64,000 nucleotides of DNA from a virus (IMGVR_UViG_3300028914_000062:70924-134923), one strand, 5' to 3'. Positions 23,514 through 54,401 are shown, counted from the stretch's first letter. A program made the numbers and translations. The notes: generated by a model not told the origin, from the sequence alone.

Positions 23514-23904
23514 CGGCTTCGGCTCCCCCTTTCTTTATAATGTTAGATGCGTTTTGGAGAATTGCAAGAACAGTATCGATTTTAGCTTTCATTTCTTGCA
23601 ATTTATCCTATTGTTCTTTTTCTATTTTTATGGTATCAATAGCGTTGTAGTAATCGTGTACCCATTGCCACTCGGAATCATAATCTTTGGGCTCCGGTCT
23701 CTCGATCTCCTGAATATAAAAATCTTTAATACCATATTTATTTAACTCTCGCGAAAGGCGAGATTTATTCACTTTTGGAAATAACGACTTAAAGAAAATA
23801 ACGTCGGCGCCACAATATAAATCACCGATTTCATTTAAGCCATCTACAACTTCATCTAGATTCTTAACTTTATTTATGTTAAAATGCACTTTACAGCAAA
23901 TCAC
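23446..23904 (-). CDS. Hypothetical protein (152 aa, code 15)
   Basis: Track ORF ends TAG 23608; read-through gives an acidic tail to TGA 23446. Confidence 0.55.
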
Positions 23905-38535: not shown

Positions 38536-38552
38536 GAGAACAACCCTTACAA

Positions 38553-38613
38553 AAACCCTCCCCACAAGGGGGAGGTTGGCTCTCCACGACCCTGAAAAGA
38601 CGATGGGTTTCAA
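38553..38613 (+). repeat. Intergenic structured repeat, copy 1 (copy 2 at 40222-40286)
   Basis: GGGGGAGGTTGGCTCTCCACGACCCTGAAAAGACGATGGGTTTCAAG identical in both copies. Confidence 0.85.
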
Positions 38614-38700
38614 GAAGAGATCGCAGAAGTCGCCGTCATCGGAGCGTGGCGCACTCACCTCGGAACCAGAGATACTGGACGAGGTTACCTTAAGGAGGTA

Positions 38701-38961: not shown

Positions 38962-39167
38962 CCTCCTATCTACGAAGAGTCCCTTTCGAGGGGCTCTTCT
39001 TTAATCCCCTCTATTAAGAGAGGATTAAAGAAGAGTTTATGCTCTTCAGCTTCCTCTCAGGGCAATCCCAATAGGGATTACTGGCAGGAGAAGAAGCCGT
39101 AGTCGACGACCTGGCCGTTGATCGTATAACTATAATGACCGGAGTTTTCCTGAAAGGAGGAAAAGAG

Positions 39168-39329
39168 ATGTTTGAAGAATTCTTCAAAGAGATCGTTACC
39201 GATCTCAAAGAGGATCTTAAGACTCTCAAGTCTTTCAATAAGAAAGACATACTTGAGGGTCTTGGCATCATCGCCGTCGTCGCGACGATGATCGTGAACA
39301 CGATCCTCGCAATTCTCATCTTCGGCTAA
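39168..39329 (+). CDS. Small membrane protein (53 aa)
   Basis: AAGGAGG RBS; C-terminal TM. Confidence 0.6.
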   Translation: MFEEFFKEIVTDLKEDLKTLKSFNKKDILEGLGIIAVVATMIVNTILAILIFG

Positions 39330-39518
39330 TATCGGAGATGAGACGTCTTTCTGCAAGTCTTGGACGTTAACTAAGACTTGTTCTTCTCATTTGGTGGGAT
39401 TGAGAAGATTCACAAGGCAAAGACCCACCACCAGCCCGAAAGGGCATTAGCAAAGCTTCAAGCTCGACGAGCACTCACTCGAAAGAGGAGTCAACCATGG
39501 GCTTGAGGAGGTTTTGCT

Positions 39519-39740
39519 ATGAACAACAAAATAAACAATATGAGGGCTCAGGCCCTCGCCATCGCCGACGAAGTCACCACCGACCTCAACATCGTCGTCA
39601 CCGACGACAAAAAGGAAGAAGTCACCGTCGAGGGGCTCCTCCTCGCCCACCACATGGGCGAAAACACCTCCGACAAGGAGGTTATGAGGAGGTGGATTAA
39701 AGCCTCCTTCGAGGAGGCGATAAGAGAGGGTAAAATTTAA
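39519..39740 (+). CDS. Hypothetical protein (73 aa), weakly similar to 38701-38961
   Basis: GAGGAGG RBS; EG..LA..MG.......V...W pattern shared. Confidence 0.6.
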   Translation: MNNKINNMRAQALAIADEVTTDLNIVVTDDKKEEVTVEGLLLAHHMGENTSDKEVMRRWIKASFEEAIREGKI

Positions 39741-39904
39741 CGTTCTCTCACTCGTCTAATGGGTCGCGAGTTTAAATAAGACTCATCACCAACCCGAAAG
39801 GGTAAATCTCTTCCCCTTCTTTGAACCCTTCTACGCAGAAAGGTTCAAAGAAGGGCTCAGCTCTTCAAAAATCAAAAGAAAAGAGGGAAATTAATGAACA
39901 GCAG

Positions 39905-40165
39905 TTAGTCTTTGGGTGTGCCCTTTCAAGCCCTTAAGGATCACGCACAATAAACACGAGGCACGGATCGCGGGGTTTTATTACTTTTGTAATAGTAATA
40001 AAACATATTTAACGCTCGACGATCAGCTGATAGCGGGGTCGGCAACAAAAGAGGTTCGGCTCCCTCATACCCGCAGAGTTTGTGACTCTTCACATAAACA
40101 AGAGCTTTGCCGATAAGTCGAGAAGAGCGGCTGGATGGGGTACGTTAAGCCCGATATATTCCAAG
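39905..40165 (+). ncRNA. Candidate large pseudoknotted non-coding RNA
   Basis: Multiple nested and crossing helices; no RBS-supported ORF. Confidence 0.4.
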
Positions 40166-40221
40166 AAAGGAGGGAAGAGAATTGACTTGCTGGACAAGAA
40201 AATTCTCTTCTCAAGGAGATT

Positions 40222-40286
40222 AAAACCCTCCCCCCCCTCGGGGGAGGTTGGCTCTCCACGACCCTGAAAAGACGATGGGTTTCAAG
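40222..40286 (+). repeat. Intergenic structured repeat, copy 2
   Basis: Same core as 38553-38613. Confidence 0.85.
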
Positions 40287-40327
40287 GAGGGATCGAATAA
40301 AAATTTATTAAAAAGGAGGAATATCCA

Positions 40328-40969
40328 ATGTCTAAAAGTAATTTTTATGGTAATAGACAAATTGCAAGATTGCTATTATTGGCTCATGAAGCAAATTTAA
40401 TAGCAAAAGATAAATTCCCAATTGTCGAAATGCCTGAAATAACTCAAGATATATATGCGGATTTTTACGCATTAAAATTGCGTTATTTTATGCAAGCCAT
40501 AAAACTAATTCAAAATATGAAAAATAGTGATTTCACATTTTGGGTTGAAGCCGCCCCGGACCAAAATGGTTATCCTTCTATTATCACATATTTTGAATTA
40601 AAACGGGGAATAGTCAATACCTATTTTCAACTCAAAGGTAGCATACTAAATCCCCGATATGAGAAAATTAGTGTGGACCATAAAATACAAGTCAGTTTCC
40701 ACACTCCGTTAAATCTGGCCCCCAAAGAACTAATTAAATTAGTTCAAAAAGGTAAACCCACAATATGGACCAAAATCGCGGGAGATCGCGATAGTATCGA
40801 ATATTTAGCAAAACACTATAATATCATGCCTAAAAATATTATTGAAGAAATGCATGAACCATGCACGACCTCATTAAAAACAGAACAAATGATTGATTTG
40901 CATCTGAAAGAAGTTGAGGCTTTAGAAGAGGAAGAAGAGCAACTCTTCTTATTAGAAGAAAATTCATAA
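40328..40969 (+). CDS. Hypothetical protein (213 aa)
   Basis: AAGGAGG RBS; AT-rich. Confidence 0.7.
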   Translation: MSKSNFYGNRQIARLLLLAHEANLIAKDKFPIVEMPEITQDIYADFYALKLRYFMQAIKLIQNMKNSDFTFWVEAAPDQNGYPSIITYFELKRGIVNTYFQLKGSILNPRYEKISVDHKIQVSFHTPLNLAPKELIKLVQKGKPTIWTKIAGDRDSIEYLAKHYNIMPKNIIEEMHEPCTTSLKTEQMIDLHLKEVEALEEEEEQLFLLEENS

Positions 40970-41177
40970 GACCCCCCTTAGGGGTCTTTCTCGGAGCCTT
41001 CGTCGAAGACTTCGAGAAAGGTCTCTAAGACCTCCGTCGTGAAAAGGTCCTACTCAGCGACGTAAAATAATACGAGCGGCGGTACGCATAATCCGACAAT
41101 GTCCTGTGATCTACGAAGGTTAACTAGATCCTCGTTACTAGCTCGGCGAGGTTAAATAAGACGAGTATCTTAAGGAG

Positions 41178-41468
41178 GTGTCTCTCATGCAGAGAGACAT
41201 CAAAAACTTAATATCGTTCGAGGGCCAGATTATTCTGACCCTCAAAGAGGGCGATACCCTGGGCGCTCTCACCATTATTGGCCGGAGGGCCAAAGAAATA
41301 CAGGGGGCTATGAACACCCCCTACGGCATTGAAAATGTCGAAATTTACGAAAGGAGGCTCAAAGAGCTCCGCGAGCTCGCGGAGGGCATTGTAGCCCTCG
41401 CGGCCGATCCCTTCTCGCTCGTTGAGAAGCAGATCGACATTGAAGAAAAACTTAAGCATCTTAAGTAA
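41178..41468 (+). CDS. Hypothetical protein
   Basis: AAGGAGG RBS. Confidence 0.6.
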   Translation: MSLMQRDIKNLISFEGQIILTLKEGDTLGALTIIGRRAKEIQGAMNTPYGIENVEIYERRLKELRELAEGIVALAADPFSLVEKQIDIEEKLKHLK

Positions 41469-41588
41469 TTCTTCAAGAAGGCAGAAGAGGACTCTACATC
41501 CTCTTCCCCTTCTCTGAGTCTTCTTATTAAGAGGATTCAGAGAAGGGTCGGTACATCCCTTCAAATAAAAAATATCCAAAAGGAGGAT

Positions 41589-42005
41589 ATGAAAATGTTT
41601 AAACTGTACTACACCCCGGAGGAATTCCGGACTATCAAAAGGCTTCTCGCGGAAGCCGAAGGTTATGAGGCAGCCATCGCAGCTGACGACCTCGCCTCAA
41701 TCCGCGAGGAGCTGAAAGAGGGGCTTTCTGAAATAGAAAGTCGCCTCACTGCCATGAAGGACGCCGCCGTCGAAAAGCGTATTACCGATGCGGTCAACGT
41801 CCTTTGCGGGGTTTGCAAGTTTCGCGATGAAAATCATCAGATTTCCTTCGCGGACCCGCAGGAGCAGTTAGCTCACGACTGTGAGCGCTGCTTCGCGACC
41901 CGCTGCCAGGTCGTAAAAGAAATGGCAAAACAGTTCGGCGTTACCGTCGAACGCAAATTTGACGGACACGACTTCGTACTCGTCATCAAAAAGGGGGCAA
42001 AATAA
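41589..42005 (+). CDS. Hypothetical protein with Cys cluster (138 aa)
   Basis: RBS; CxxC..CxxC...C. Confidence 0.65.
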   Translation: MKMFKLYYTPEEFRTIKRLLAEAEGYEAAIAADDLASIREELKEGLSEIESRLTAMKDAAVEKRITDAVNVLCGVCKFRDENHQISFADPQEQLAHDCERCFATRCQVVKEMAKQFGVTVERKFDGHDFVLVIKKGAK

Positions 42006-42231
42006 TGGCTGACGAAAAATCCTTCGAGGACGACGTCCTCATCGGCATCCTCACTCTCGAGGATATCGATGAGATCAACAACGAGCCCTACGGGGCTCAC
42101 TAATCCCTCAGCGGAGCAGGACTCTACATCCTGCTCCGCCTCTGCTTTGAATCCTATTGTAAATAGGGTTCAAAGGAGAGTTCACTCTCCTATTATTATT
42201 AGCGGGTAAACCCCGCAGAAAGGAGAACCTT

Positions 42232-42468
42232 ATGAAAAAGGTTCTTTGGAGGATCATAAAGATCCTCACCGTCCTTGCCGGAGTAGCCGGCTTTGTCGTG
42301 GCATACGTTTATGCCTCAACAGAAGACTATCTCGCGTACATTAATTCACGTGGGATAATCGACCCCGACGTCATCACCAACACGACGCCGCTGCTGGTGA
42401 CAACGTTCATTTTGCTGGGCGTCTCCCTTTTGGGTATCTTTGTTATAGAAAGGAGGAATTCGAAATGA
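42232..42468 (+). CDS. Two-TM membrane protein (78 aa)
   Basis: Two hydrophobic helices; RBS. Confidence 0.65.
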   Translation: MKKVLWRIIKILTVLAGVAGFVVAYVYASTEDYLAYINSRGIIDPDVITNTTPLLVTTFILLGVSLLGIFVIERRNSK

Positions 42469-42665
42469 CAATGGCACAGCTCATTGCTGCGTGCAATGCC
42501 GCACAACCTGGATCGGCTCACGAGCCGACCAATCACACTGCGGCTCTCAAAGCCGTCGACAAAGCCACCGCAACCGCCAAAGTCGCCTACACCCCCAAAG
42601 CACATAAAGGCGACAATCGTCGCGATTATAAGGCCGCGCGCCGCGAGAAACATACCACCTGGTAA
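42465..42665 (+). CDS. Hypothetical protein (66 aa)
   Basis: AGGAGG RBS; ATGA overlap. Confidence 0.55.
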   Translation: MTMAQLIAACNAAQPGSAHEPTNHTAALKAVDKATATAKVAYTPKAHKGDNRRDYKAARREKHTTW

Positions 42666-42744
42666 ACCTCTCACCTCGTTCCTGGCGGGCTCGAGGTAAA
42701 TAAAGCCCGCTAAATATTTAAACATTAAAATGGAGGAAATAATA

Positions 42745-42996
42745 ATGGCAAAATTCAAAGGAAATGGTTCCACTGCAATGGAGCAGTATAACTTTATGAA
42801 TGGTTTCGACCCCAAAAAGGACGCTCCCACACAGAAAACCCGTAAAACAGGAAAGATCGTCAGCAAACTTAACGGAAGGGCATTACCCAAAAAGCCATGC
42901 TTGGTCACCAAAAACGGCATGGAAATCACTATGGATATAGACGCCTATCAGGCACAAGAATTTAAAGCCAACGGCTACAAAGTCATCGAGCTTTAA
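42745..42996 (+). CDS. Hypothetical protein
   Basis: GGAGG RBS before MAKFKG. Confidence 0.6.
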   Translation: MAKFKGNGSTAMEQYNFMNGFDPKKDAPTQKTRKTGKIVSKLNGRALPKKPCLVTKNGMEITMDIDAYQAQEFKANGYKVIEL

Positions 42997-43021
42997 AAAT
43001 AAAAAACGGAGGAATAAAAAG

Positions 43022-43678
43022 ATGCAAGCAGAAAGAAAATTAACCACCACCAACAACAACAATACGGAGGAAAAGAAAATGAAAAAAGAAATGAAGAGAG
43101 AAATTTTATCGAACAAGCAATTTGACAAAATCCAAAAAGACATCGAAGACCTAGCCAAAGCGAGGTCCATCATTACTAAAAAAATTAACGAATTAAACCG
43201 CAAAACCAAAGCCTCTTATCAAAAGAGACAAGAAAAAACAACTAAAACTCCGAAAAGCATTCCGGGTTTTCCCAACTTTGATTTACCGATTTACAAATAC
43301 TATGATAAATACGGTAATCTAATAAAAACAGAATTAAAACCTGAATGCAATTGGGAGTATCTGGAAAAATGGACTGAAAGAATTCAGTCTAAAATAAACG
43401 AACTAGATTATACCTACTGCGAATTCCATCATTTAATAGACAATCCCAGAAAAAATCTTCTTGGGCTAGTTTTGATGCCCACACGCATTTATGATCACAT
43501 GTTTTTGTTTAAAAAAGACGATCGTTTGTTTGCAGTCGTTTATCCGGGAAGGTGGAACAAAATAGTTGATCTGGGGCAGAAATACGATCCCAATAAATCT
43601 AATTTAGAGATTTGCCTGGAATATACCAAATTCGTATACGACCATATTATGGCCGAATACAATAAAATAAAGTTCTAA
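43022..43678 (+). CDS. Hypothetical protein (218 aa)
   Basis: RBS; second in-frame RBS/ATG at 43079. Confidence 0.65.
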   Translation: MQAERKLTTTNNNNTEEKKMKKEMKREILSNKQFDKIQKDIEDLAKARSIITKKINELNRKTKASYQKRQEKTTKTPKSIPGFPNFDLPIYKYYDKYGNLIKTELKPECNWEYLEKWTERIQSKINELDYTYCEFHHLIDNPRKNLLGLVLMPTRIYDHMFLFKKDDRLFAVVYPGRWNKIVDLGQKYDPNKSNLEICLEYTKFVYDHIMAEYNKIKF

Positions 43679-43756
43679 TTTAAAACCATCACAGAAAGGA
43701 GGTGATGCCCATGCTTGTGGTTAATTAGGCAAATACCAATAAAATAAAAGTTTCAT

Positions 43757-43812
43757 TGTTCCATAACTTGGGGATCAAAATGATCTTAAAATTTCACCAC
43801 CCAAGTGGAACA
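43757..43812 (+). promoter_or_regulatory. Structured 5'-UTR element, copy 1
   Basis: Three-helix structure covarying with 46743-46797; abuts RBS. Confidence 0.6.
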
Positions 43813-43827
43813 GAAGGAGAAATCATC

Positions 43828-44847
43828 ATGAGCAATTTTTACTTTTTTGAAAACTTCGGCAGAGAAATTATTAACGGCAAAAACATCGAGGAGGCCCTTA
43901 TCGAAGGACTCCTCAACTATAAGGTGGTCAAAGAGGCCACCTTTACGGCGCCGTATCTTTACGACGACAACGGAGAACACATCATCGACCAAAATGGTCA
44001 GTGGGCCATCGATATGAGCCAGGCAATCTTGATGCCGAATTTAGCCACTACGGTGAAGATTGCCAACGGCCAGAGATTCCCCATCGACGTCGTTAAGCAG
44101 AGCTACGGTATTGTCCAGAATGCCGAGGCCCTCAGTGTCATCGATACTCTTCTCGCAAAAACCGGAGGAAAGATAATCAGAGTCGGTGAATACGGAACCA
44201 AGAAAAACGCCGTAAAAGGCAGCTTGTTCGTCGTTATTGAACTACCGCCCGTCACGATTTTGGGTGAAGAGTACAAGTTATATCTCCTCTTTACCAACTC
44301 CTTCGACGGTTCTTCGGCGGTTCGTGTGTGCTTTACGCCCACTCGAGTGGCCTGTAAGAATACTCTGCCGCTTGCATTCAAGAATGCAATTGCAAGTCTG
44401 ATTGTCAGACATACGATTACGGCACCCGAGAGATTCGCAGAAGGCGATAGAATCTTAAAAGAACATAGTGTTCAGATCAAGCTTCTTACTGAAGATTGCG
44501 AATACTTGGCAAAAATTGCAGTAAGCAAAGCGCAGTATCAGAACAAAATCATTCCCGCTGTTCTGAAAGCTGACAATGTTTTGCCTGACTCAGACGAAAA
44601 GAAACGCAATAAAGACCGCTACGAGCGTCTTTTCGGTGAGCTTGTGAAGACGTATGAGGCCGCTGATTTAGGTAACTTGAATAGTACGGCTTTTAAAGCG
44701 TTACAGGCGGTTGCTGATTACGAAACGCATCACGAGCCCGACAAAAACAAAAACAACTATCAGCAGTACTTCACTAGAGCAGTAGCTGGTATGCCTCTAA
44801 CTACCGTAGCTCACAATGTGATTGTTGATCAGTTTGTTACTAAATAA
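43828..44847 (+). CDS. DUF932 (TIGR03299-like) phage/plasmid protein
   Basis: Y.IVQN.EA, YLLFTNSFDGS, TP.RV.C.N.L and RHT motifs. Confidence 0.8.
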   Translation: MSNFYFFENFGREIINGKNIEEALIEGLLNYKVVKEATFTAPYLYDDNGEHIIDQNGQWAIDMSQAILMPNLATTVKIANGQRFPIDVVKQSYGIVQNAEALSVIDTLLAKTGGKIIRVGEYGTKKNAVKGSLFVVIELPPVTILGEEYKLYLLFTNSFDGSSAVRVCFTPTRVACKNTLPLAFKNAIASLIVRHTITAPERFAEGDRILKEHSVQIKLLTEDCEYLAKIAVSKAQYQNKIIPAVLKADNVLPDSDEKKRNKDRYERLFGELVKTYEAADLGNLNSTAFKALQAVADYETHHEPDKNKNNYQQYFTRAVAGMPLTTVAHNVIVDQFVTK

Positions 44848-44862
44848 GAGAGGAGGATAAGA

Positions 44863-44920
44863 ACCGTCGAGGGGCGAGACGTAAAACCCGACCACAAAAA
44901 TATTTAAATTAAAAGGAGAA
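44863..44920 (+). repeat. 58-bp intergenic repeat with mini-pseudoknot and RBS (copy at 51733-51790)
   Basis: One mismatch between the copies. Confidence 0.85.
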
Positions 44921-44927
44921 AAAAACA

Positions 44928-45323
44928 ATGAACGAAAACAAAACCAACAATACCAAAAACGAAAAGGAGAACAATATTATGAACGAAAACAAAACCAACA
45001 GCACCAACGTATGGTCTTATGCCCCCAACATGAGCAAGCTGTTTGATAAAATGAGCGAAGAATGTGAAATATATGAGCAGCACCTTGGTTTCGACAAGGG
45101 AGAAATTCTACAGCACGCTCACGAATACGCGCTGAGAGAAGATATCTTCTTTTCTTTATACGACTACCCGCTTACCGAGGATGAAGCGGCAGTATTACTG
45201 AAGTCCGAAACGCCTTTACTGGACTTGGTACACGCGTATGAAGAGGCCGAGACCGATCATATGACTGTTGTTCGATCTATGATTAAGAATTACGTAAACA
45301 TTAAATGCGGAGGTAATGAATAA
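44928..45323 (+). CDS. Hypothetical protein (131 aa)
   Basis: RBS; ILQHAHEYALREDI motif; duplicated N-terminus. Confidence 0.65.
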   Translation: MNENKTNNTKNEKENNIMNENKTNSTNVWSYAPNMSKLFDKMSEECEIYEQHLGFDKGEILQHAHEYALREDIFFSLYDYPLTEDEAAVLLKSETPLLDLVHAYEEAETDHMTVVRSMIKNYVNIKCGGNE

Positions 45324-45538
45324 TGCCTAATAAATACGTAATTATGGGCATCAATACTACCACACATCAGAGATCTTACTACAACGTCCTCGACTCCAAG
45401 TGGGTCGAGGACGAATCAAAAGCAACGATCTTCGATGACCACAACGAAGGACTCAAATGGTGGATGATTGCAAGCAAACCACCCATTTCTCGTGGACTAC
45501 GAGTAGTCCTTCCCAACGCGAAAGGAGGTGAAAATTAA
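45323..45538 (+). CDS. Hypothetical protein (71 aa)
   Basis: TAATG coupling. Confidence 0.6.
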   Translation: MPNKYVIMGINTTTHQRSYYNVLDSKWVEDESKATIFDDHNEGLKWWMIASKPPISRGLRVVLPNAKGGEN

Positions 45539-45681
45539 TGACCGATCTTGAATTCAAAGCAATCATGGATCGAGAAACCAAAGCCGCCATTGCGCAAGCA
45601 AAGGCAATGCAAGCAATTTTTGATTCATTCTTCAAAGCAGAGCCCTTAGTAAAACCTGATAATAAAAAGGAGGAAAAGTAA
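45538..45681 (+). CDS. Hypothetical protein (47 aa)
   Basis: AAGGAGGTG RBS; TAATG coupling. Confidence 0.55.
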   Translation: MTDLEFKAIMDRETKAAIAQAKAMQAIFDSFFKAEPLVKPDNKKEEK

Positions 45682-45861
45682 ATGTTTTTTGTTCTTATGG
45701 GAATTTTAACTATCAGCGACGTGGCCGTGTTCCTTATCATGAACCACGCTTCGAAACAGGAAGAGACAGGTCCGCAGATTGCGGGCCTTGTCTCTTCTTT
45801 AGGAATTACAGTATGTGACTTAGTCCTTTTGGGCCAAGCGATCGAAATGAATCTTATATAA
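45682..45861 (+). CDS. Small membrane protein (59 aa)
   Basis: AAGGAGG RBS; two hydrophobic segments. Confidence 0.55.
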   Translation: MFFVLMGILTISDVAVFLIMNHASKQEETGPQIAGLVSSLGITVCDLVLLGQAIEMNLI

Positions 45862-45879
45862 TTTAAGGAGGAAAACAAT

Positions 45880-46278
45880 ATGAAAACTTACAAAACTCGC
45901 ATCGTCACAACCAATCAACCTCATCATTTTCGCCCCTGCATTGAAGGAGTAGAAAGACTGGCAAATCTTTATAAGGAAGATTTCCCCAAACTTCATTGGG
46001 GACAATGGAACCTTATTCTCGAACGAACCAAGAAAAATTCCAAGTCAATTCATATGGGTAATCCTCAAGTTGTAAATCTTATCTTTGAGGATGTCCTCGA
46101 CGGATTTCTTTCTATCGAACTTTCTGATCTTTCTATTCATCAGAAAGAAATCTTATGGATGGGCTTAGGCAAATCTTTCGAGAAACACAGAGAACGAGAT
46201 CCTCTCGGGTCTCTGGGCGAAGACGAAGGGTTTTTCACGACTCTTCGAGATACTTTCTATCTCAAATTAAAAATATAA
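45880..46278 (+). CDS. Hypothetical protein (132 aa)
   Basis: AAGGAGG RBS. Confidence 0.65.
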   Translation: MKTYKTRIVTTNQPHHFRPCIEGVERLANLYKEDFPKLHWGQWNLILERTKKNSKSIHMGNPQVVNLIFEDVLDGFLSIELSDLSIHQKEILWMGLGKSFEKHRERDPLGSLGEDEGFFTTLRDTFYLKLKI

Positions 46279-46286
46279 GGAGGAAA

Positions 46287-46498
46287 ATGAACTGAACAAT
46301 TTATTAACACTTCGTTACAACCTGGATGAAGTCATATTAAAAGACCTTCACCCCATTGACCAGCACACGCCGGTCGAACTCTTCGCCGAGTTCGCAGAAA
46401 AAGCAATCAAAGAAGAATATGAAGTTGAACCCGTCTCCTTCGGCGTCGAAGTAGATTTCGAGGATGGACACCTCGACGTCTATGATATTAAAATATAA
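46287..46498 (+). pseudogene. Small acidic ORF with a frameshifted start (or a CTG start at 46292)
   Basis: RBS-ATG AAC TGA, then an open 68-codon frame from CTG 46292 to TAA 46498. Confidence 0.4.
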
Positions 46499-46510
46499 GG
46501 AGGTGATAAA

Positions 46511-46726
46511 ATGAATTTTCAACAGGCACACCTTAAGTATAGTAGGCTTAATGCGAAATCTATTAAAGCTTACAAAGGATTTAGAATCGCTTATGAAAAA
46601 GTCTTATGCAATCCAAATTGGCTTAATCAGAGCGTTTTAAATCTCAAGCGTAGGAATCATAGCAAAGCTCTCTCAAAAGAGATCCAGGCTTTCAAAGCGT
46701 GGATGGCAACAGCCACAATAAAATAA
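46511..46726 (+). CDS. Hypothetical protein (71 aa)
   Basis: AAGGAGGTG RBS. Confidence 0.6.
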   Translation: MNFQQAHLKYSRLNAKSIKAYKGFRIAYEKVLCNPNWLNQSVLNLKRRNHSKALSKEIQAFKAWMATATIK

Positions 46727-46742
46727 TTCTTTTATTGTGCCC

Positions 46743-46797
46743 GTTCTCATAATTTGGGAGTCAAAATGACTTTAAAATTTTACAACCCAAAGAGAAC
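46743..46797 (+). promoter_or_regulatory. Structured 5'-UTR element, copy 2
   Basis: Compensatory changes versus 43757-43812. Confidence 0.6.
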
Positions 46798-46813
46798 AGA
46801 AAGGAACATTACC

Positions 46814-47806
46814 ATGTACAACTACAACAACACCATCAACACCGCTGCTAACAACACCAACAAAAACAATAACAAAATGGAGGAGATTAAAATGAATGAA
46901 ATAAAAATGGCTTCTATTCTTAACAAACTCGACAGATCCGGTGTTAAAGTCGGATTTAGCGACCAGATCCCCGCTCAGCTTGCTCACAGCGATAAGCCGT
47001 ATATGACGGGTTATATGACCGGAACCGTTCCCGCCAACGTGCCGAGCAACATGTTTGCCCAGGGCGCAGTCGGAGGTATCGGCCTCGTCATCGAAGGTGA
47101 AAAGGAAACCCCTGAGCTTATGGAGCTTGTTTCCTATCTCTCTAGAAACGCATACGAAGGAGCTGCGCTCATCAAATTCTGTCAGAAATGCCTTCTTGCT
47201 GGCAACGTTCCTGTCAGAAAAGTCGTCGACGTTGTTGATGAGGATTGCGGAGAAGAATACGCAGACAACTCTGTGTACTTTATCTGCTCCAATGGTAAAG
47301 TTTTAATCCGCAACGGCGAAGATTTCGAAATCGTTTATGAAGGAACCGTGTTACCTAACCTTCAGACGATGAGCGACAAACAGTGTTTGGATGTCATTCG
47401 CTCTACGGTAGAGACTTATGCCAATTTGGTTGAACAGGGCCGAGACGAAAACAATGAGCAAGATAGCGCAGATGATTTATGGGACCGTGCTTGCAATATT
47501 GCAGTATCCAGAAGTACCCCCGAAGAACTTGAATGGGTTTATAACGTAATTGTCGATATTAAAAAAGCTCGGGGAAATGACGATATAATTCGTGAGCAAG
47601 CTTTAACAGAGGCTATAATGAACTGGGTTGAAGCAAAGTGCCTCAACACTGATTGGACAATAACCAATCAAATGAAACAGATTGAAGCTTTACAAGATTG
47701 GATTGAAGCTTTACAAGATTGGATTGATGAATTCAAAAAAGATCAGAAAAAGGAGGAACCGGAATGCGGCGAAGAAGATGACGGCCAGCAGAATTGGATA
47801 TTTTAA
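46814..47806 (+). CDS. Hypothetical protein
   Basis: Long ORF; in-frame 21-bp tandem duplication at 47681-47722 (IEALQDW x2). Confidence 0.7.
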   Translation: MYNYNNTINTAANNTNKNNNKMEEIKMNEIKMASILNKLDRSGVKVGFSDQIPAQLAHSDKPYMTGYMTGTVPANVPSNMFAQGAVGGIGLVIEGEKETPELMELVSYLSRNAYEGAALIKFCQKCLLAGNVPVRKVVDVVDEDCGEEYADNSVYFICSNGKVLIRNGEDFEIVYEGTVLPNLQTMSDKQCLDVIRSTVETYANLVEQGRDENNEQDSADDLWDRACNIAVSRSTPEELEWVYNVIVDIKKARGNDDIIREQALTEAIMNWVEAKCLNTDWTITNQMKQIEALQDWIEALQDWIDEFKKDQKKEEPECGEEDDGQQNWIF

Positions 47807-47838
47807 TCAACAATAATTATTAATAGGAGGAACAAATT

Positions 47839-48621
47839 ATGAAAAAGAACGAACAGTATCTCGGCAAGCGCATTCTCATCAAGTATATGGAGGGTGAACC
47901 TCGATATACCAACCGCACCGGCATCGTAACTCATGTGGACGATCTCGGTCAGCTTCACGGAACATGGGGTGGCCTTGCGGCCATCCCCAACCATGATTTA
48001 CTTGAAATACTCCCCGATGAGGGAAATAATAAAAAGGAGGAACAAATTATGAAACACACCAACAGCAAAACCAACCCCAAAATCAACAACAAGGAGGAGA
48101 ACAACATGGAAGAAAAAATCGAGTTCACCCCGGCAGAAGAGGCTGCCATCAAGAAGTACAACCAGTGCTTCTACAACGTGGGCAAGGGCCAGTTTGTCAC
48201 CGTCACCTACAAGAAGAGCGCAATCCCCGTCAAGCAGTACAGACAGAAGACGGGTGATGATTTGGCGTTTAAAACCACCCGCACTCAGTATAGGGTGGAT
48301 ATCAACGTCGAAGAGCCCAAGCACGAGTTGACCGAGAGCGGTAAGAAAGCCCAGGAGACCCGTAAGAAGAATGAGGTATGGTTAATCCCCAATCGCCTTA
48401 AGCACAACAGAAAGACGGATAACTACCTGATCGTTCTGTATCCGTTCAAAACGTCGACCTACGATGTGACCTATGGCCACAACGATCACGAGGTCGATAA
48501 GGAAACTTACGAGGCCTTAATCGGAGGCACCAAGTCCAGTGGTAAGCCTCCGTTCTTCACTCTCGCAATGAAGGGCCTTCTCAGAGTTGCGGCTAATAAG
48601 CGTGTTTGGGAGGTGAAATAA
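47839..48621 (+). CDS. DUF4314-like N-terminus fused to a hypothetical protein
   Basis: G.RI....M......G.V..VDD.GQLH..WG.LA.IP..D; internal RBS/ATG at 48049 and 48106. Confidence 0.65.
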   Translation: MKKNEQYLGKRILIKYMEGEPRYTNRTGIVTHVDDLGQLHGTWGGLAAIPNHDLLEILPDEGNNKKEEQIMKHTNSKTNPKINNKEENNMEEKIEFTPAEEAAIKKYNQCFYNVGKGQFVTVTYKKSAIPVKQYRQKTGDDLAFKTTRTQYRVDINVEEPKHELTESGKKAQETRKKNEVWLIPNRLKHNRKTDNYLIVLYPFKTSTYDVTYGHNDHEVDKETYEALIGGTKSSGKPPFFTLAMKGLLRVAANKRVWEVK

Positions 48622-48700
48622 TATAATGCCCCGGGGTGGGCTCCCATGCGAAAGCTAAAGCAAGCCCATTTTCCCATTCTAAATATAAAGGAGAATAAAT

Positions 48701-49318
48701 ATGATTTTATATTATATTCAATCGGGGGTCAATCCGTACACCAGCGCTGCTCATGGATATTGTTGGCAAAGCAAAACTGCTTGTAAGCAATATAAAAATG
48801 AACATGAAATAAATCCAAGAGAATCCAGAATCAAACGAATTGATACTAAAAACATAGAAGATATTATACAAGCGTTAACAGATTTTAATTCTTATTGTTT
48901 TTTAGAAGCAATAGACCGTTTAGATATAAAAAACAATTGCGTAGATCTGCGATTTTGTGGATTAGGTCGGAAAGATAACATAAACTCATCTAATCTGTTT
49001 TTCCACAAAGGAAAATTTCAAAATATATTAGACGAAAAATACTTTAAACCTGACGAAACAGGAAAGAGCAGACTACCATTAAATTTCCCATATATTAATA
49101 GACGTATGAACAAACTGTTAACGTCTTATGGATGGATTGTAGCTAATAAGCATACATATATCCCAATTACCAATCCTTGCTCCACAATTATTTTAATGAA
49201 GGGTACTTATGGAGAACAAACTCATTGGGATTCTTACTATCAAAGAGCGCCATATGAATATATGCGAGATAAATATCAGTTATATATTCATAAAAGTGTT
49301 GTAAAAACCATAAAATAA
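48701..49318 (+). CDS. Hypothetical protein (205 aa)
   Basis: RBS; AT-rich. Confidence 0.6.
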   Translation: MILYYIQSGVNPYTSAAHGYCWQSKTACKQYKNEHEINPRESRIKRIDTKNIEDIIQALTDFNSYCFLEAIDRLDIKNNCVDLRFCGLGRKDNINSSNLFFHKGKFQNILDEKYFKPDETGKSRLPLNFPYINRRMNKLLTSYGWIVANKHTYIPITNPCSTIILMKGTYGEQTHWDSYYQRAPYEYMRDKYQLYIHKSVVKTIK

Positions 49319-49339
49319 AAATATAAGGAGGATATAGCT

Positions 49340-49543
49340 ATGCACAAAGAAAAAATCAGAATGGAAACATGCAGAATGTGCCATCAGGAGGTTCACCGCG
49401 AGGATATGCGATGGACCTATGACTGTCACGGAATCCCATTCCGTTGTGTATGCCCGGAGTGCTACGAGGCCATCATGGAAGAGAAAGGCTATGATGGAGA
49501 ATACTACACGGAATTCGATGAAAATATCGAAGAAAATTATTAA
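49340..49543 (+). CDS. Small zinc-finger protein (67 aa)
   Basis: CxxC..DCHGIPFR.VCxxC. Confidence 0.65.
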   Translation: MHKEKIRMETCRMCHQEVHREDMRWTYDCHGIPFRCVCPECYEAIMEEKGYDGEYYTEFDENIEENY

Positions 49544-49561
49544 TTAATAGGAGGAATAATT

Positions 49562-51724
49562 ATGAACAAACAGCCTAGTTTCCAGTTTCATCTCCATCAG
49601 AATGGAACAATCATCTTTAAAGGCAATATCGCAGAAGAATCTTTTGAGGTGAAGGTGCCCAAGTCTGAGGTGCTTAACCCCAAAACAATGCAAAGCTTCC
49701 AAGGACAGTATTATCCTTCCAACGCTGAACGAGGCGGTTGGTTTGATATGCTAACTGGAAAATTCCCCTTGTCCCAGGAAGAAATTAGTGAATGTAATTA
49801 CCGGTATAAATTTTGGAGCGGAGAACTCCGGAGAGAATTTAATGGGTGTTACATCAAGAAAATTGAGCCCTCGATTTTAGTGTTCTTCTGTATCACCTTA
49901 AACACAGAAAAAAGCGCCCAAGAGATATATGAGCAGGGTCACTTCATGAAGAAATGGAAATATGAAGTGCCCTATGTTATCGTATACCATAAAGGGAAAG
50001 TTTACATTTATGATACGGTAATTAAAGAAGTCAAGTATCTTCTCCAATATAAAAAAGAAGCAGACATTTTAAATGCCTACCTATCTTGGGAGTGCCCTTT
50101 TACCGACTTCAAGAAAACAGGAGAAACGTGGGGTGATTATATTTCCTACGTTGGAATTACCAGTTCCGGAAGATCGGCCTGGTGGTGCAATTCCAATATG
50201 ATTTCTCTCCTACGTAACGCAATTTATGATGCAAGAGATCACGCTATTACTGCTAATGGTCCCAAAAAATCGATGGGAGAGGGATTGGAAGAAAAATTCT
50301 ACGACGCTTTACACACGCCGATTCCAGAGGGACTAATTAATGCTTCTCTTAGGTCCGCGATCATTACCAAGTATCAAGATCTCCTAATAATTAATTACAA
50401 AAATGGGCAAGGATATATTGGTAGATTTGTTCTCGATGGAACCAAACATTTTTCCAATTTTGTTAAGCGAGGAGATAATTGGTATTATGAAAAGCATAAG
50501 GTTCGTGATCTTTACGGTTATGATCTCATTCAATGGAATCCCGAGGTCGCCAAAGGAACCGTTTATGAACCGCTATGTCGCACAAAGCATTTTGGAGATA
50601 TTAAACAGCAACCCGGCATAATGCTTCATTACTTCCAATACTTAAATGGAAAATTTGATGGGGATCGAGCTATGGTTGAACAATATATCAAAGAATTTAT
50701 AGCATTTTTCGACAATGATTTATTGTATTCAATCTATGAAATTAACCCCGCAACCAATTCTTTAATCTCCATGTATCAGACAACGATTTCTTTGTATCCG
50801 GTTCGATACTGGATAAGGGTTCTCTCGCATTCGCATCAAAAACAATTTACAAATTCTTATGATTGGTATGGTGTCAATAAATATCAAATTTCAAAATTTG
50901 TACAATTATTAAAGCTACTCAAACAAAACCAAAAACCTAGTTATTATCAAGGCCTTAATTATCGATCTGCTATGCAAAACTTATTCAATTTCATTGCAAA
51001 ATTTTGGTACAATAATGAAACGGCAGATTTGCGAGGATTAAGCAATTCAAAATTTGATCTTTTGTTCGATTGGATTTATGAATTAAAAGATTATCCGTGG
51101 CCATACTATGGAGAGAATCTAATTCCCGCCAACGTGGATAAAGAAGCTCTAATCCGTTTCTGGCAAAAAGAAGGGTATACTCCCCAAGACCTGCGCAATT
51201 GGAGAGATACAATTCAAATGATGCGCCAGGTCACTCGTGGTGAACCTCTAACGTCAAGTGTTCTGAAAATTCGTCTAGTTGATTTACACACGATTCACGA
51301 TCGATTAGCAGCACAAATTCACGAATTTGAATCTAAATCGGCGGCTGAAAAATGGGAAATTCAAAAACCGAATTGGGAAAAATATGTATATGAAGATCCG
51401 ACATATACAATTATTATTCCCGAAAAACCAGAAGATCTCACAAGAGAAGGTACATTGCTGCAGCATTGCGTCGGATCTTATATTAACCGTGTCGCCAACG
51501 GCAGTGATATCATTTTGTTCTTAAGGAAGAAGGAGAAACCAGATGAACCGTTCTATACTCTAAATTTGTCACCGGATGGTACCAAAATTGAACAAGTTCA
51601 CGGCCACCATAATAAATGGCCGGCTATGAATCCAGAAATCTTACCTTTCTTGGATAAGTGGATTAAGAAATTTAACATTGAAGGATGGGAGGGAATTAGA
51701 AATGTAAAAAGAGACCATTATTAA
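49562..51724 (+). CDS. PcfJ-domain protein, paralog 1 (720 aa)
   Basis: C-terminal EG..L.HCVGSY..R...G...ILFLRK...P..PFYTL...Q.HG..N. Confidence 0.85.
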   Translation: MNKQPSFQFHLHQNGTIIFKGNIAEESFEVKVPKSEVLNPKTMQSFQGQYYPSNAERGGWFDMLTGKFPLSQEEISECNYRYKFWSGELRREFNGCYIKKIEPSILVFFCITLNTEKSAQEIYEQGHFMKKWKYEVPYVIVYHKGKVYIYDTVIKEVKYLLQYKKEADILNAYLSWECPFTDFKKTGETWGDYISYVGITSSGRSAWWCNSNMISLLRNAIYDARDHAITANGPKKSMGEGLEEKFYDALHTPIPEGLINASLRSAIITKYQDLLIINYKNGQGYIGRFVLDGTKHFSNFVKRGDNWYYEKHKVRDLYGYDLIQWNPEVAKGTVYEPLCRTKHFGDIKQQPGIMLHYFQYLNGKFDGDRAMVEQYIKEFIAFFDNDLLYSIYEINPATNSLISMYQTTISLYPVRYWIRVLSHSHQKQFTNSYDWYGVNKYQISKFVQLLKLLKQNQKPSYYQGLNYRSAMQNLFNFIAKFWYNNETADLRGLSNSKFDLLFDWIYELKDYPWPYYGENLIPANVDKEALIRFWQKEGYTPQDLRNWRDTIQMMRQVTRGEPLTSSVLKIRLVDLHTIHDRLAAQIHEFESKSAAEKWEIQKPNWEKYVYEDPTYTIIIPEKPEDLTREGTLLQHCVGSYINRVANGSDIILFLRKKEKPDEPFYTLNLSPDGTKIEQVHGHHNKWPAMNPEILPFLDKWIKKFNIEGWEGIRNVKRDHY

Positions 51725-51732
51725 TCCCAATT

Positions 51733-51790
51733 ACCGTCGAGGGGCGAGACGTAAAACCCGACCACAAAAATATTTGAATTAAAAGGAGAA
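51733..51790 (+). repeat. Second copy of the 58-bp intergenic repeat
   Basis: Matches 44863-44920. Confidence 0.85.
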
Positions 51791-51797
51791 ACAAACT

Positions 51798-54401
51798 ATG
51801 TCAAACATCAAAGTCAACCAGAACGTCGAACTCAAGCCCCTTGTCCTCAAAACTAAAGCCCGCTGCCTCCATTATCATGACCCCAACACGAAGCTCCAAG
51901 ATTCGATCATAATTGAGCAGCAATGGGATCCCAGAGCGTACACCGTCGAAAAAATCGATAACTATTTGGCTATCAACTTCTGGAGATATTCAGATGGTTA
52001 CTACTCAGATCCGTACAGGGTGTCGTCGTTCAATTCCCGTACGAATACACACATGGTACCGATTGGCAACAAGTACCCTGGATCCAGAATTCAGTTAAGA
52101 ATTTATCAAAATCGTAAAGTCGCATTGGTTCATGAACATAGAATCAATGTTGACGGTCACGATCAGATTAAGACCTTTGTGCAAAACGACATGGATGGAG
52201 GACACCTTGTCTACAGATCCTGGGGAGCCAGACACGAGCCCGGTGTGGATGCTACTTTGTTCTTTAACTCGATTAAAGATATGACCGACAAAGAGATTGA
52301 AGCTGCCGCAAAGACATTAAGAAAAGCTGAGGTCACTCAGTTAATCAATTATGTAGGCGGTCGATTAGCTTCTGATATATCTGATTCAAACGAGATCATT
52401 GCGTTCAATCAGACAGATCGATGCTATGTTCATCTGGGGGCCAACACTATAGATCGAGTTAAAAAATTCTTTGGAGATAGTATTCCTAAGAATTATGGCA
52501 AAATCACGAACCTAGAGAGCTTAATGAGGTTCTCGTACTATAAAGATGCCAATACCGATGCCAGCATCAAAAAGAACGAGGATATGTTCAAAACTCTGAT
52601 GGAACCTTACAAAGAGCAGATCCGGAGATTACAACCAAGAACCCAGTTCTGGTTCAGAACCGATAGTTATATTGGATGCTATATCAAAGGTAGTCAAGAT
52701 AACTATTATTGGGACCGTACGCGTAATGGGTCTGCTTGGGTATTCTTGTATAATTACAAAACCAGGTCTAGGATCTTGATGAAATATAATATTGAAACAG
52801 GATCTTATACTAAGAACGTACCATCATTAAGCGCATTGGATGATTTCCACTTTGGGCCGACCTGGGACTGGAGAGGTAATTATGGTCAGCAGCAGCCTCC
52901 AATGGACAAGCCTGCGTACTCCGTGGTTATCGCTAATAATCTCCCGATTAAAGAGTTGTTTGCTAATACCAATATCGGATTTTTATTAGAAAACAACCCC
53001 GATTTCAAGCTCCGGAATTTGCACGTTTATACGCGCAATGGAACAAATCCTCAGATACCTATATCCCAGATTATTACCAAAGAATCAATCCAAGAATGGG
53101 CGCTTATCCTCTTAGGCTCTTCCAATAACCCAGTTTTGGAAATGCTCTTGAAAAGCAAAATGTACAATTTGTACGATTTGGCTTTAAAGGATATGACGAA
53201 CCAAGGTGGAAGATTCGACGATATTGACGCAAAGAAAGCTCGTCATTCTTGGTATGGCCGTACTCAGTATTTCCCATACCATGGAAAACAGAAAAACCTT
53301 TCCAAGATGTTTGAAATGACGGTCGATCAGTTAAGAGTCTTGGACGAGCTATATGCAACCGTTAATAGAGACGATTATTATTGGAACAGTAACCACTATC
53401 GTCCGCATTGGCTGGACTCTGTTTTACATGTCCCGCTCTCAAGCTTGGATTTGGACACATTCAAGAAACTGTGTGAAATGAGTAAAGGCAACGATTATGG
53501 ATCATTGCCTGAGATGAACCTCAACGGTCTTAAACCCAAAGAGATCGTTAACACATTCTATATCTATAAGGATCATATGCAAGAATTCAAGGATTACTTG
53601 AATGCCAGAAAGACCTTACAGACAATTCAAGAAAGATTCCCTGATCGCTCCATTTTCAGTGAGAGAGATTATCCTCTTAAGCCGAAAGCGGGTAAAAAGT
53701 TTGTCAGGTTTATCTCTGGCATGACGGGCCAGGGTCGTTATGGATCACAGAGATTGAACACCTGGTATGATTTCCAGAACTATTATTCCAGTAATTATAA
53801 AAATTGCTGTGAATTTGTTCCAAATGTCGGCGTCAGTTTAACCTTGGGGACAATTGAAATGTTGAAGTATTTACACAATGATGCCTCTTTCTGGGCTTCT
53901 TTCTACCAAGATTCTACCAAGACCGAATCGTTCCAGAAAGCCTTGGAGAGAGTCAAAGAATACGTCTACGTCGATGAGGACATGGGGCTGGAAATGGTTT
54001 CTCCGAGCTCAATTCAGGATTTGAAAGCAGAAGGAGAAACTCTGCACCATTGTGTAGGATCTTATGTTGATTCGATCATCGGAGGAAAAGAAAATATCAT
54101 GTTCCTCAGAAGATCAGATATGCCTGGTGCCCCGTTCTACACGGTTGAATTGGTACCGCCGATGGATGACCACGGCGACATCTTGGATGAACATAAGAAG
54201 ATTATCAGACAGGTTCACTGCTATTACAACGGAGACCTGACTGAAGAGGGCCAAGACAAAGCCTATGAACAATCAAGCATGCCGGTCTATAACAAGAAAT
54301 TTAATATCGTTGAGTTCTTGTTAAAATGGGCCAAAGCCAAGAAGGACATCGACTCTCAGTCGATTAAAAGCAGATACGGCGCTCTCTGCGCTCTCAGATA
54401 A
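51798..54401 (+). CDS. PcfJ-domain protein, paralog 2 (867 aa)
   Basis: EGETLHHCVGSY...IMFLRR...PFYTVE. Confidence 0.85.
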   Translation: MSNIKVNQNVELKPLVLKTKARCLHYHDPNTKLQDSIIIEQQWDPRAYTVEKIDNYLAINFWRYSDGYYSDPYRVSSFNSRTNTHMVPIGNKYPGSRIQLRIYQNRKVALVHEHRINVDGHDQIKTFVQNDMDGGHLVYRSWGARHEPGVDATLFFNSIKDMTDKEIEAAAKTLRKAEVTQLINYVGGRLASDISDSNEIIAFNQTDRCYVHLGANTIDRVKKFFGDSIPKNYGKITNLESLMRFSYYKDANTDASIKKNEDMFKTLMEPYKEQIRRLQPRTQFWFRTDSYIGCYIKGSQDNYYWDRTRNGSAWVFLYNYKTRSRILMKYNIETGSYTKNVPSLSALDDFHFGPTWDWRGNYGQQQPPMDKPAYSVVIANNLPIKELFANTNIGFLLENNPDFKLRNLHVYTRNGTNPQIPISQIITKESIQEWALILLGSSNNPVLEMLLKSKMYNLYDLALKDMTNQGGRFDDIDAKKARHSWYGRTQYFPYHGKQKNLSKMFEMTVDQLRVLDELYATVNRDDYYWNSNHYRPHWLDSVLHVPLSSLDLDTFKKLCEMSKGNDYGSLPEMNLNGLKPKEIVNTFYIYKDHMQEFKDYLNARKTLQTIQERFPDRSIFSERDYPLKPKAGKKFVRFISGMTGQGRYGSQRLNTWYDFQNYYSSNYKNCCEFVPNVGVSLTLGTIEMLKYLHNDASFWASFYQDSTKTESFQKALERVKEYVYVDEDMGLEMVSPSSIQDLKAEGETLHHCVGSYVDSIIGGKENIMFLRRSDMPGAPFYTVELVPPMDDHGDILDEHKKIIRQVHCYYNGDLTEEGQDKAYEQSSMPVYNKKFNIVEFLLKWAKAKKDIDSQSIKSRYGALCALR

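Follow-up and report, generated by a model that had tools for sequence, protein, structure and literature searches.

A gut phage carries, in its early region, paralogous copies of a compact H-type RNA pseudoknot. We found them in a window comprising the final 64 kb of one 134,923-bp virus record (IMGVR_UViG_3300028914_000062), where they lie on the sense strand of an early polycistronic transcript and combine a fixed core with a second stem that changes from copy to copy. The motif appears to be uncatalogued and is scattered through unrelated double-stranded DNA (dsDNA) phages and some plus-strand RNA viruses. Its predicted function is probably a general one in viruses, namely to mark or protect segments of RNA. 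An earlier note on this DNA had described a dispersed family of intergenic pseudoknots "conserved in structure, not sequence." The core of that observation is real and more general than the note could see, but part of its list of copies and the "not sequence" claim are wrong.

The copies sit in a TAG-free early region with a plus-strand series of small open reading frames (ORFs) that have strong Shine-Dalgarno sites. Downstream of this series lie one DUF932 gene and then four PcfJ-domain genes. The four transfer RNA (tRNA) genes of the phage are outside the copy region, and the window itself holds no tRNA gene. The window family consists of three canonical copies, one divergent copy, and one degenerate copy, listed here with scores from a covariance model of stem 1 and tail that was trained on the first four.

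39750..39786, + strand: canonical pseudoknot; stem 1 of 5 bp (core UCG/CGA), loop 1 of 4 nt, stem 2 of 7 bp including one G.U pair, loop 2 of 1 nt, loop 3 of 8 nt; 36.7 bits; begins 10 nt past the stop of ORF 39519-39740.
41130..41166, + strand: canonical pseudoknot; stem 1 of 5 bp, stem 2 of 5 bp including one G.U pair; 37.5 bits; preceded by two knot-like remnants and lies 5 nt 5' of the Shine-Dalgarno site of ORF 41178-41468.
42673..42712, + strand: canonical pseudoknot; stem 1 of 6 bp, G+C-rich stem 2 of 9 bp including one G.U pair (-15.9 kcal/mol for stem 2 alone), loop 2 of 0 nt, loop 3 of 6 nt; 28 bits; begins 8 nt past the stop of ORF 42465-42665.
39343..39381, + strand: divergent pseudoknot of the same topology; stem 2 of 9 bp, stem 1 off the SUCG/CGAS core, C for A in loop 3; 22.1 bits; begins 14 nt past the stop of ORF 39135-39329.
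41036..41071, + strand: degenerate relative; GUCG/CGAC-type stem 1, 18-nt loop, A-rich tail; 16.3 bits, E 0.1; no stem 2 partner downstream.

The first four sites fall within 3.4 kb, all in spacers, as the earlier note had placed them, and on the gene-sense strand. The stems quoted there for these sites are all in the sequence as written, and the loop lengths sterically fit an H-type fold. Three copies (39750, 41130, and 42673) match letter for letter at the stem 1 core SUCG/CGAS and at loop 3, KUWAAAUAA; only stem 2 varies. Across the four sites stem 2 has unrelated sequences of 5-9 bp, each complementary and each with one G.U pair, and it is stacked directly on stem 1 (loop 2 of 0-1 nt) within a motif of 37-42 nt. 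The same three copies carry the full motif, that is, the core, the KUWAAAUAA tail, and an adjoining complementary stem 2 on the sense strand. The 39343 copy shares the topology only: its score comes from a model that had it in the training set, and it can alternatively be read as a plain stem 2 hairpin. An A-rich loop 3 had been claimed for all copies; this holds for three, whereas loop 3 at 39343 is not A-rich in the same way.

Chance expectation depended strongly on the descriptor. A generic descriptor for H-type pseudoknots with 5+5 bp matched 183 times per strand; such folds are common by chance and have no evidential value. Keying the descriptor on the A-rich loop without a G-C requirement gave 8 matches versus 4.2 ± 2.2 in shuffles. 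Our strict descriptor required a 5-bp stem 1 with at least three G-C pairs, a stem 2 of at least 5 bp, a loop 2 of at most 2 nt, and a loop 3 containing AA[AC]TAA. It found exactly four sites on the plus strand of the genome and 0 on the minus strand, whereas 100 dinucleotide shuffles averaged 0.56 matches and never exceeded 3. The string CGAG[GT]T{0,2}AAATAA, a 13-15-mer spanning the 3' half of stem 1 and the A-rich tail, occurs in the 135-kb genome only at the three canonical sites.

Beyond its training copies, the covariance model recovered only 41033-41079 and a minus-strand hairpin in the late-gene region. The former is the weak copy previously listed at 41035, which has stem 1 and loop 3 without stem 2. 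The latter (23729-23765; 17.5 bits, E 0.055) is a 6-bp, stem 1-like hairpin that lies just ahead of the same A-rich tail, lacks stem 2, and is probably due to chance. The other weak copies on the earlier list fared no better. That at 41103 is marginal, with a 3-bp stem 1 only, and was missed by the model, and those at 44865 and 51735 are one duplicated 86-nt leader with about 4+3 bp and no model match at E ≤ 10. This leader is a direct repeat (44863-44948 and 51733-51818; 87% identical) that takes in a structured leader, the Shine-Dalgarno sequence, and the opening codons of two distinct genes (44928 and 51798).

The early region is dense with further spacer structures, with hairpins 3' of each small gene. 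Two short GNRA-capped hairpins with the same 5' flank (39432-39447 and 39788-39802) follow the first two pseudoknots, and pseudoknot plus hairpin may constitute a larger repeated module.

Recurrence in other viruses and covariation of stem 2

An exact-pattern scan of viral contigs for a CUCG-core stem 1 followed by the tail gave 110 loci, 58 of them distinct. For stem 2, we compared the hairpin loop adjoining stem 1 with the bases just past the tail, and we took as the null the same matches with their downstream segments swapped. With the CUCG core, 11 of the 58 distinct matches had a stem 2 of at least 6 bp (3.05 ± 1.6 expected), and 6 had at least 7 bp (1.1 expected). The GUCG/CGAC core behaved similarly, with at least 6 bp in 15 of 86 matches (3.8 ± 1.7 expected) and at least 7 bp in 8 (1.4 expected), so that complementarity for both cores was 3-4 times the null. 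Control stems with the same tail were not enriched (GCAC/GUGC, 8 versus 4.75; AUCG/CGAU, 5 versus 3.8), nor were 88 matches from mostly cellular metagenome contigs (7 versus 3.7). The excess is therefore specific to viral DNA and to the SUCG/CGAS core, whose outer pair covaries (CUCG versus GUCG). Two GUCG-core copies with differing stem 2 (L281 and L318) lie in a single 27-kb phage contig (IMGVR_UViG_3300031760_000471); multi-copy carriage is thus not unique to the window phage. A group of 25 T5-like loci, antisense within a tail-fibre ORF and with a 6-nt loop 2, was treated as chance. We dropped a U..G wobble at the closing position of stem 1, which seemed conserved among the initial matches but showed no overall enrichment.

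The pairing rules indicate which molecule folds. Pooling the 144 viral matches of both cores and requiring a stem 2 of at least 6 bp, we counted 9 matches versus 0.6 expected with Watson-Crick pairs only and 28 versus 7.1 with G.U pairs allowed. Allowing A.C pairs, which correspond to G.U on the opposite strand, gave 14 versus 6.7. G.U is tolerated and A.C is not; only the sense strand therefore folds, and the motif is an RNA feature. Together with the covariation of stem 2, seen both among the window paralogues and among unrelated viruses, this bears out the RNA-level family of H-type pseudoknots that the earlier note had described.

Rfam 15, against which that note had suggested comparing the family, gave nothing at any copy, either at the gathering threshold (window and 56 loci) or at E ≤ 10 (the window sites, as 3.4-kb and 121-nt queries). 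Literature searches with the motif string and for phage pseudoknot motifs of this kind returned nothing relevant. Megablast against phages, two protein-seeded scans of viral contigs, and an exact-protein look-up found no close relatives of the window phage. The homologue search yielded short contigs that are colinear with the window and do not carry the motif, so the covariation rests on paralogues and unrelated viruses and none of it on orthologues.

Placement and likeness to known RNAs

In other viruses, credible copies start 1-18 nt past ORF stops. Three IMG/VR records with the motif are, unexpectedly, plus-strand RNA viruses, and in each the motif follows the stop of the replicase ORF: by 9 nt in a noda-like virus (L282; RdRP_3 and Peptidase_A6 capsid), by 8 nt in a tombus-like virus (L249; GDD ORF and S-domain coat), and by 1 nt in a picorna-like virus (L019; polyprotein). 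In Erwinia jumbo phages (Alexandravirus), a 131-nt spacer has the order stop, motif, intrinsic terminator. Within tRNA arrays the motif lies 2-4 nt 3' of a tRNA (L003 and L129), 5 nt 5' of one (L350), or between tRNAs (L036, L069, and L021). In three phage contigs with permuted, two-piece transfer-messenger RNA (tmRNA) genes (L016:422-811, L091:1-130, and L124/L125), it fills the excised spacer and ends 6 nt before the coding piece. Pattern matches within 500 nt of a tRNA or tmRNA gene were co-oriented with it in 14 cases and opposed in 0. One weak copy lies 5' of a ROOL RNA.

The pistol ribozyme (RF02679), also phage-associated, resembles the motif in having a 5-bp P1 hairpin whose loop pairs with a downstream strand. 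Loop 3 of three copies contains a 7-nt string identical to the J1-2 linker of the env25 pistol, including its conserved AAA. Crystal structures show three adenines of this linker forming A-minor triples with P1 in its minor groove (PMC6101554). The minor-groove triplex that had been ascribed to loop 3 gains indirect support from this analogy. However, in pistol the linker is separated from the pseudoknot strand by P2 and an internal loop, and the ribozyme also has P3 and a G-U scissile site. A length of 37-42 nt leaves no room for these; only 0-3 nt separate loop 3 from the stem 2 strand. In addition, the whole P1 loop pairs in pistol, whereas the window motif leaves 1-6 loop nucleotides free. 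The Rfam models of pistol, hepatitis delta virus (HDV)-like, hatchet, twister, and hammerhead ribozymes did not match the sites even at E ≤ 10.

Theta ribozymes, which are minimal HDV-like ribozymes, are likewise small pseudoknotted RNAs and have a tRNA-adjacent setting in common with the motif, being found directly 3' of tRNA genes in gut Caudoviricetes that include TAG-recoded phages (PMC10879173). HDV-like and theta ribozymes differ in having two nested pseudoknots, a P3 hairpin (P3/L3) that lies between the P2 and P1 strands, P1.1, and a catalytic C in J4/2, for which the motif has no room; its 0-1-nt loop 2 excludes P3. The four copies of the window phage are not beside its tRNAs.

Class 3 (plant-virus) exoribonuclease-resistant RNAs (xrRNAs), hairpin-type pseudoknots about 45-55 nt long, require no host factors; their pseudoknot helix of 3-9 bp covaries, and in plus-strand RNA viruses they often occupy intergenic positions immediately 5' of coat-protein genes (PMC12397905, PMC6299227). 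The three motif matches just past replicase ORFs of plus-strand RNA viruses recall this placement. Class 3 xrRNAs, in contrast, need a J1/2 bulge, a conserved L2B T-loop, and an AGY motif, features that close a ring around the 5' end (PMC12397905). The window motif lacks these features: its stem 1 is unbulged and its loop 2 has 0-1 nt.

Two further groups share the H-type fold. The preQ1-I aptamer (RF00522) is a pseudoknot of the 34-nt class whose A-rich 3' tail lies in the minor groove of a 5-bp stem 1. It differs in its stem 2 of 2-4 bp (5-9 bp in the motif), in a loop 2 with a ligand-reading cytosine, and in its location in 5' untranslated regions (UTRs) of queuosine genes. Searches with the 3.4-kb and 121-nt queries gave no preQ1-I match at E ≤ 10, and the flanking ORFs include no queuosine-pathway families. 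The frameshift or readthrough pseudoknots of luteoviruses and retroviruses are compact H-type structures with an A-rich loop 3 triplex on stem 1, located 6-9 nt past the recoding site. The motif, unlike these, has no slippery site, lies at variable distances from stops (1-18 nt), and also occurs in noncoding tRNA and tmRNA spacers. A readthrough or bypass reading was rejected: past the stops, the reading frame does not consistently stay open. The motif is not a member of the pistol, HDV-like, preQ1-I, class 3 xrRNA, or ToxI families.

Predicted function and alternatives

The function that we favor, as a tentative prediction, is that of a self-contained structure that serves as punctuation or roadblock and governs how RNA is processed and stabilized. 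By analogy with the pistol linker on P1, the adenines of loop 3 would dock in the minor groove of stem 1, and this triplex bracing would make the small knot unusually rigid and independent of any host-specific partner. Directly 3' of a coding region, a tRNA, or a tmRNA piece, such a knot would insulate neighboring folds and stop processive enzymes, namely 3' and 5' exonucleases and perhaps RNase E as it scans. In this way, a polycistronic RNA would be processed into segments with defined, protected ends. Hosts ranging from Erwinia to gut bacteria, together with eukaryote-type RNA viruses, point to a self-contained property or a universal partner and not to a host-specific protein, and it is because of this spread that we favor punctuation. 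The dense hairpins behind each small early gene fit the same reading, and the motif suggests that the TAG-free early transcript of the window phage is heavily punctuated and processed.

Several observations weigh against this proposal. A purely mechanical knot does not need a constrained stem 1, which hints at a specific partner or chemistry and so keeps alive a ribozyme or ribozyme-derived module, a tRNA-mimic signal for RNase P or Z, and an operator for a ligand, the ribosome, or a protein. Erwinia hosts are not known to have an RNase J-type 5'-to-3' exonuclease. Nested-fold energies at the sites are unremarkable (z of -0.4 to -2.5), and competing folds exist at 39750 and at 41130, where they follow from the near-identical sequences of stems 1 and 2. 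Proximity to a stop codon counts as suggestive only: 7 of 28 credible copies start within 25 nt of a stop versus 13 of 99 chance pattern matches, a modest difference, and compact genomes force short distances to stops. Finally, the entire 39343-41468 block is missing from a colinear relative (L365; Logan SRR23253233 contig) that shows 76% identity in a 138-amino-acid (aa) protein, and in this relative no knot follows the syntenic counterparts of the 64-aa and 66-aa ORFs. Hence the element is dispensable, and it is gained and lost together with small gene cassettes.

A more far-reaching claim, which we consider unlikely, is that the motif represents a new self-sufficient viral RNA device of about 40 nt that plus-strand RNA viruses have in common with dsDNA phages. 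One version is a minimal roadblock to exonucleases or helicases, based on an A-minor pseudoknot like that of pistol; the other is a punctuation element that cleaves itself or guides RNase P and would be the smallest of its kind in nature. In either version, viruses would cut and cap with it the segments of polycistronic RNAs, tRNA arrays, and two-piece tmRNA precursors. If nuclease blocking or directed cleavage without host factors is true, the motif would be a very compact part for RNA engineering. The spacers of phage early genes, tRNA arrays, and noncoding RNA genes are poorly understood, and a 40-nt motif with a fixed core, found in Erwinia phages, gut phages, and RNA viruses and absent from Rfam, would offer a new handle on how viral RNA is processed and stabilized. 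It also provides a seed for a covariance model and, in Erwinia phage pEa_SNUABM_22, whose single copy sits between CDS 00212 and 00211, a culturable test system.

The knot could instead be a regulatory aptamer or operator that binds a small ligand, the ribosome, or a phage or host protein and tunes translation or termination of the neighboring gene, a possibility to which we assign a low probability. Both preQ1-I and guanidine-III aptamers match the motif in size and architecture. Also in favor are the constraint on the sequences of stem 1 and loop 3, the closeness of the 41130 copy to a Shine-Dalgarno site, a U-run after stem 2 in one locus (L163), and a post-stop spacing like that of recoding pseudoknots. 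Yet the copies have no fixed relation to a downstream start or terminator (12 to >500 nt, or none), no associated gene family, and no consistently open frame past the stop. Copies are also found between tRNA genes, in tmRNA spacers, and in a 3' UTR that precedes a terminator, no Rfam riboswitch matches, and loop 2 is too short for the ligand-reading residue of preQ1-I.

Two catalytic or processing roles seem improbable to us. A small self-cleaving ribozyme, or a module derived from one related to pistol, would cut at or near its own border to free the upstream mRNA, tRNA, or tmRNA piece, in the manner of theta ribozymes that follow phage tRNAs. The combination of a conserved core and a helix free to vary is typical of ribozymes, the linker is that of pistol J1-2 in the same P1-pseudoknot layout, the distribution among relatives is sporadic, and the position 2-4 nt past tRNAs matches that of theta ribozymes in recoded gut phages (PMC10879173). 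Against this stand the length of the motif, which accommodates neither pistol P2/P3 nor HDV P3/L3 and J4/2, the silence of the Rfam ribozyme models, and the lack of a conserved candidate scissile dinucleotide in the flanks.

We give equally little credence to a recognition signal for a universal processing enzyme, in which stem 2 stacked on stem 1 (10-15 bp) mimics an acceptor/T-arm minihelix, RNase P (or RNase Z/E) cuts, and the new 5' end is capped by what remains, the stem 2 hairpin. RNase P accepts as substrates the pseudoknotted, tRNA-like acceptor arms of plant viruses. In tRNA arrays the motif takes the place of a tRNA, with spacings like those of tRNAs; at three tmRNA coding pieces the distance to the RNase P site is 6 nt; and its presence in phages of very different hosts would fit a universal enzyme. 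However, no consistent CCA-like tail follows stem 2, which ranges in length from 5 to 9 bp, the majority of copies are not beside tRNAs, and the occurrence in eukaryote-type RNA viruses is not obviously explained.

A DNA-level element, such as a cassette boundary or recombination site, a single-strand hairpin, or a promoter, is very improbable. Integrons have structured sites after each cassette ORF, a position similar to that of the motif, and the copies flank small gene cassettes that are missing from L365 and are sporadic among kin. We disfavor a DNA-level role because of the asymmetry between G.U and A.C, which means that one strand only folds. Every window copy with a stem 2 has a G.U pair in it, copies are always in the sense of genes and tRNAs, and the motif occurs in RNA viruses. 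A promoter was rejected: upstream -10-like hexamers are inconsistent, and the promoter scan was empty at the sites, with no sigma-70-type promoter coincident with the copies.

The earlier note had also raised decoys of type III antitoxin pseudoknots. Such decoys (ToxI, CptI, or TenpI-like), which would neutralize a host abortive-infection nuclease, now seem extremely improbable because of context, despite a similar general shape (hairpin-type pseudoknots of about 36-45 nt), the ToxN cleavage motif AAAU in loop 3, three knot-like elements clustered at 41036-41166, and an early, anti-defense-type region with DUF932 and PcfJ genes. Type III antitoxins are tandem, near-identical repeats of 34-45 nt beside a gene for a ToxN/AbiQ-family toxin. 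The sites show no tandem or direct-repeat family and no Rfam antitoxin match, and their neighbors include no ToxN/AbiQ-type or other toxin-like or defense protein and no Pfam or PADLOC family; the same core in eukaryote-type RNA viruses, tmRNA and tRNA spacers, and phages of unrelated hosts would be unexpected for a host-specific decoy.

The indel block and neighboring structures

In L365 (positions 500-642) a 67-aa gene is followed directly by a 136-aa gene. The corresponding 2.1-kb block of the window, which contains pseudoknots, a candidate noncoding RNA (39.9-40.2 kb), and an AT-rich gene, is thus an indel between close phages. The AT-rich gene (40328-40969) encodes 213 aa, has no Pfam or PADLOC family, and looks recently acquired within the G+C-richer early region; it is followed by the three knot-like elements at 41036, 41103, and 41130. 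A 78-nt direct repeat (38551-38628 and 40223-40300; 86% identical), made up of a G-rich/C-rich hairpin and a conserved tail, brackets a block of small genes and two pseudoknots, with its copies 1.67 kb apart. Farther downstream, two hairpins (41481-41513 and 42111-42143) have different complementary stems and an identical 7-nt loop. At the second of these, L365 (1084-1112) has the loop in reverse-complement form, suggestive of a small inversion of the segment between the two arms.

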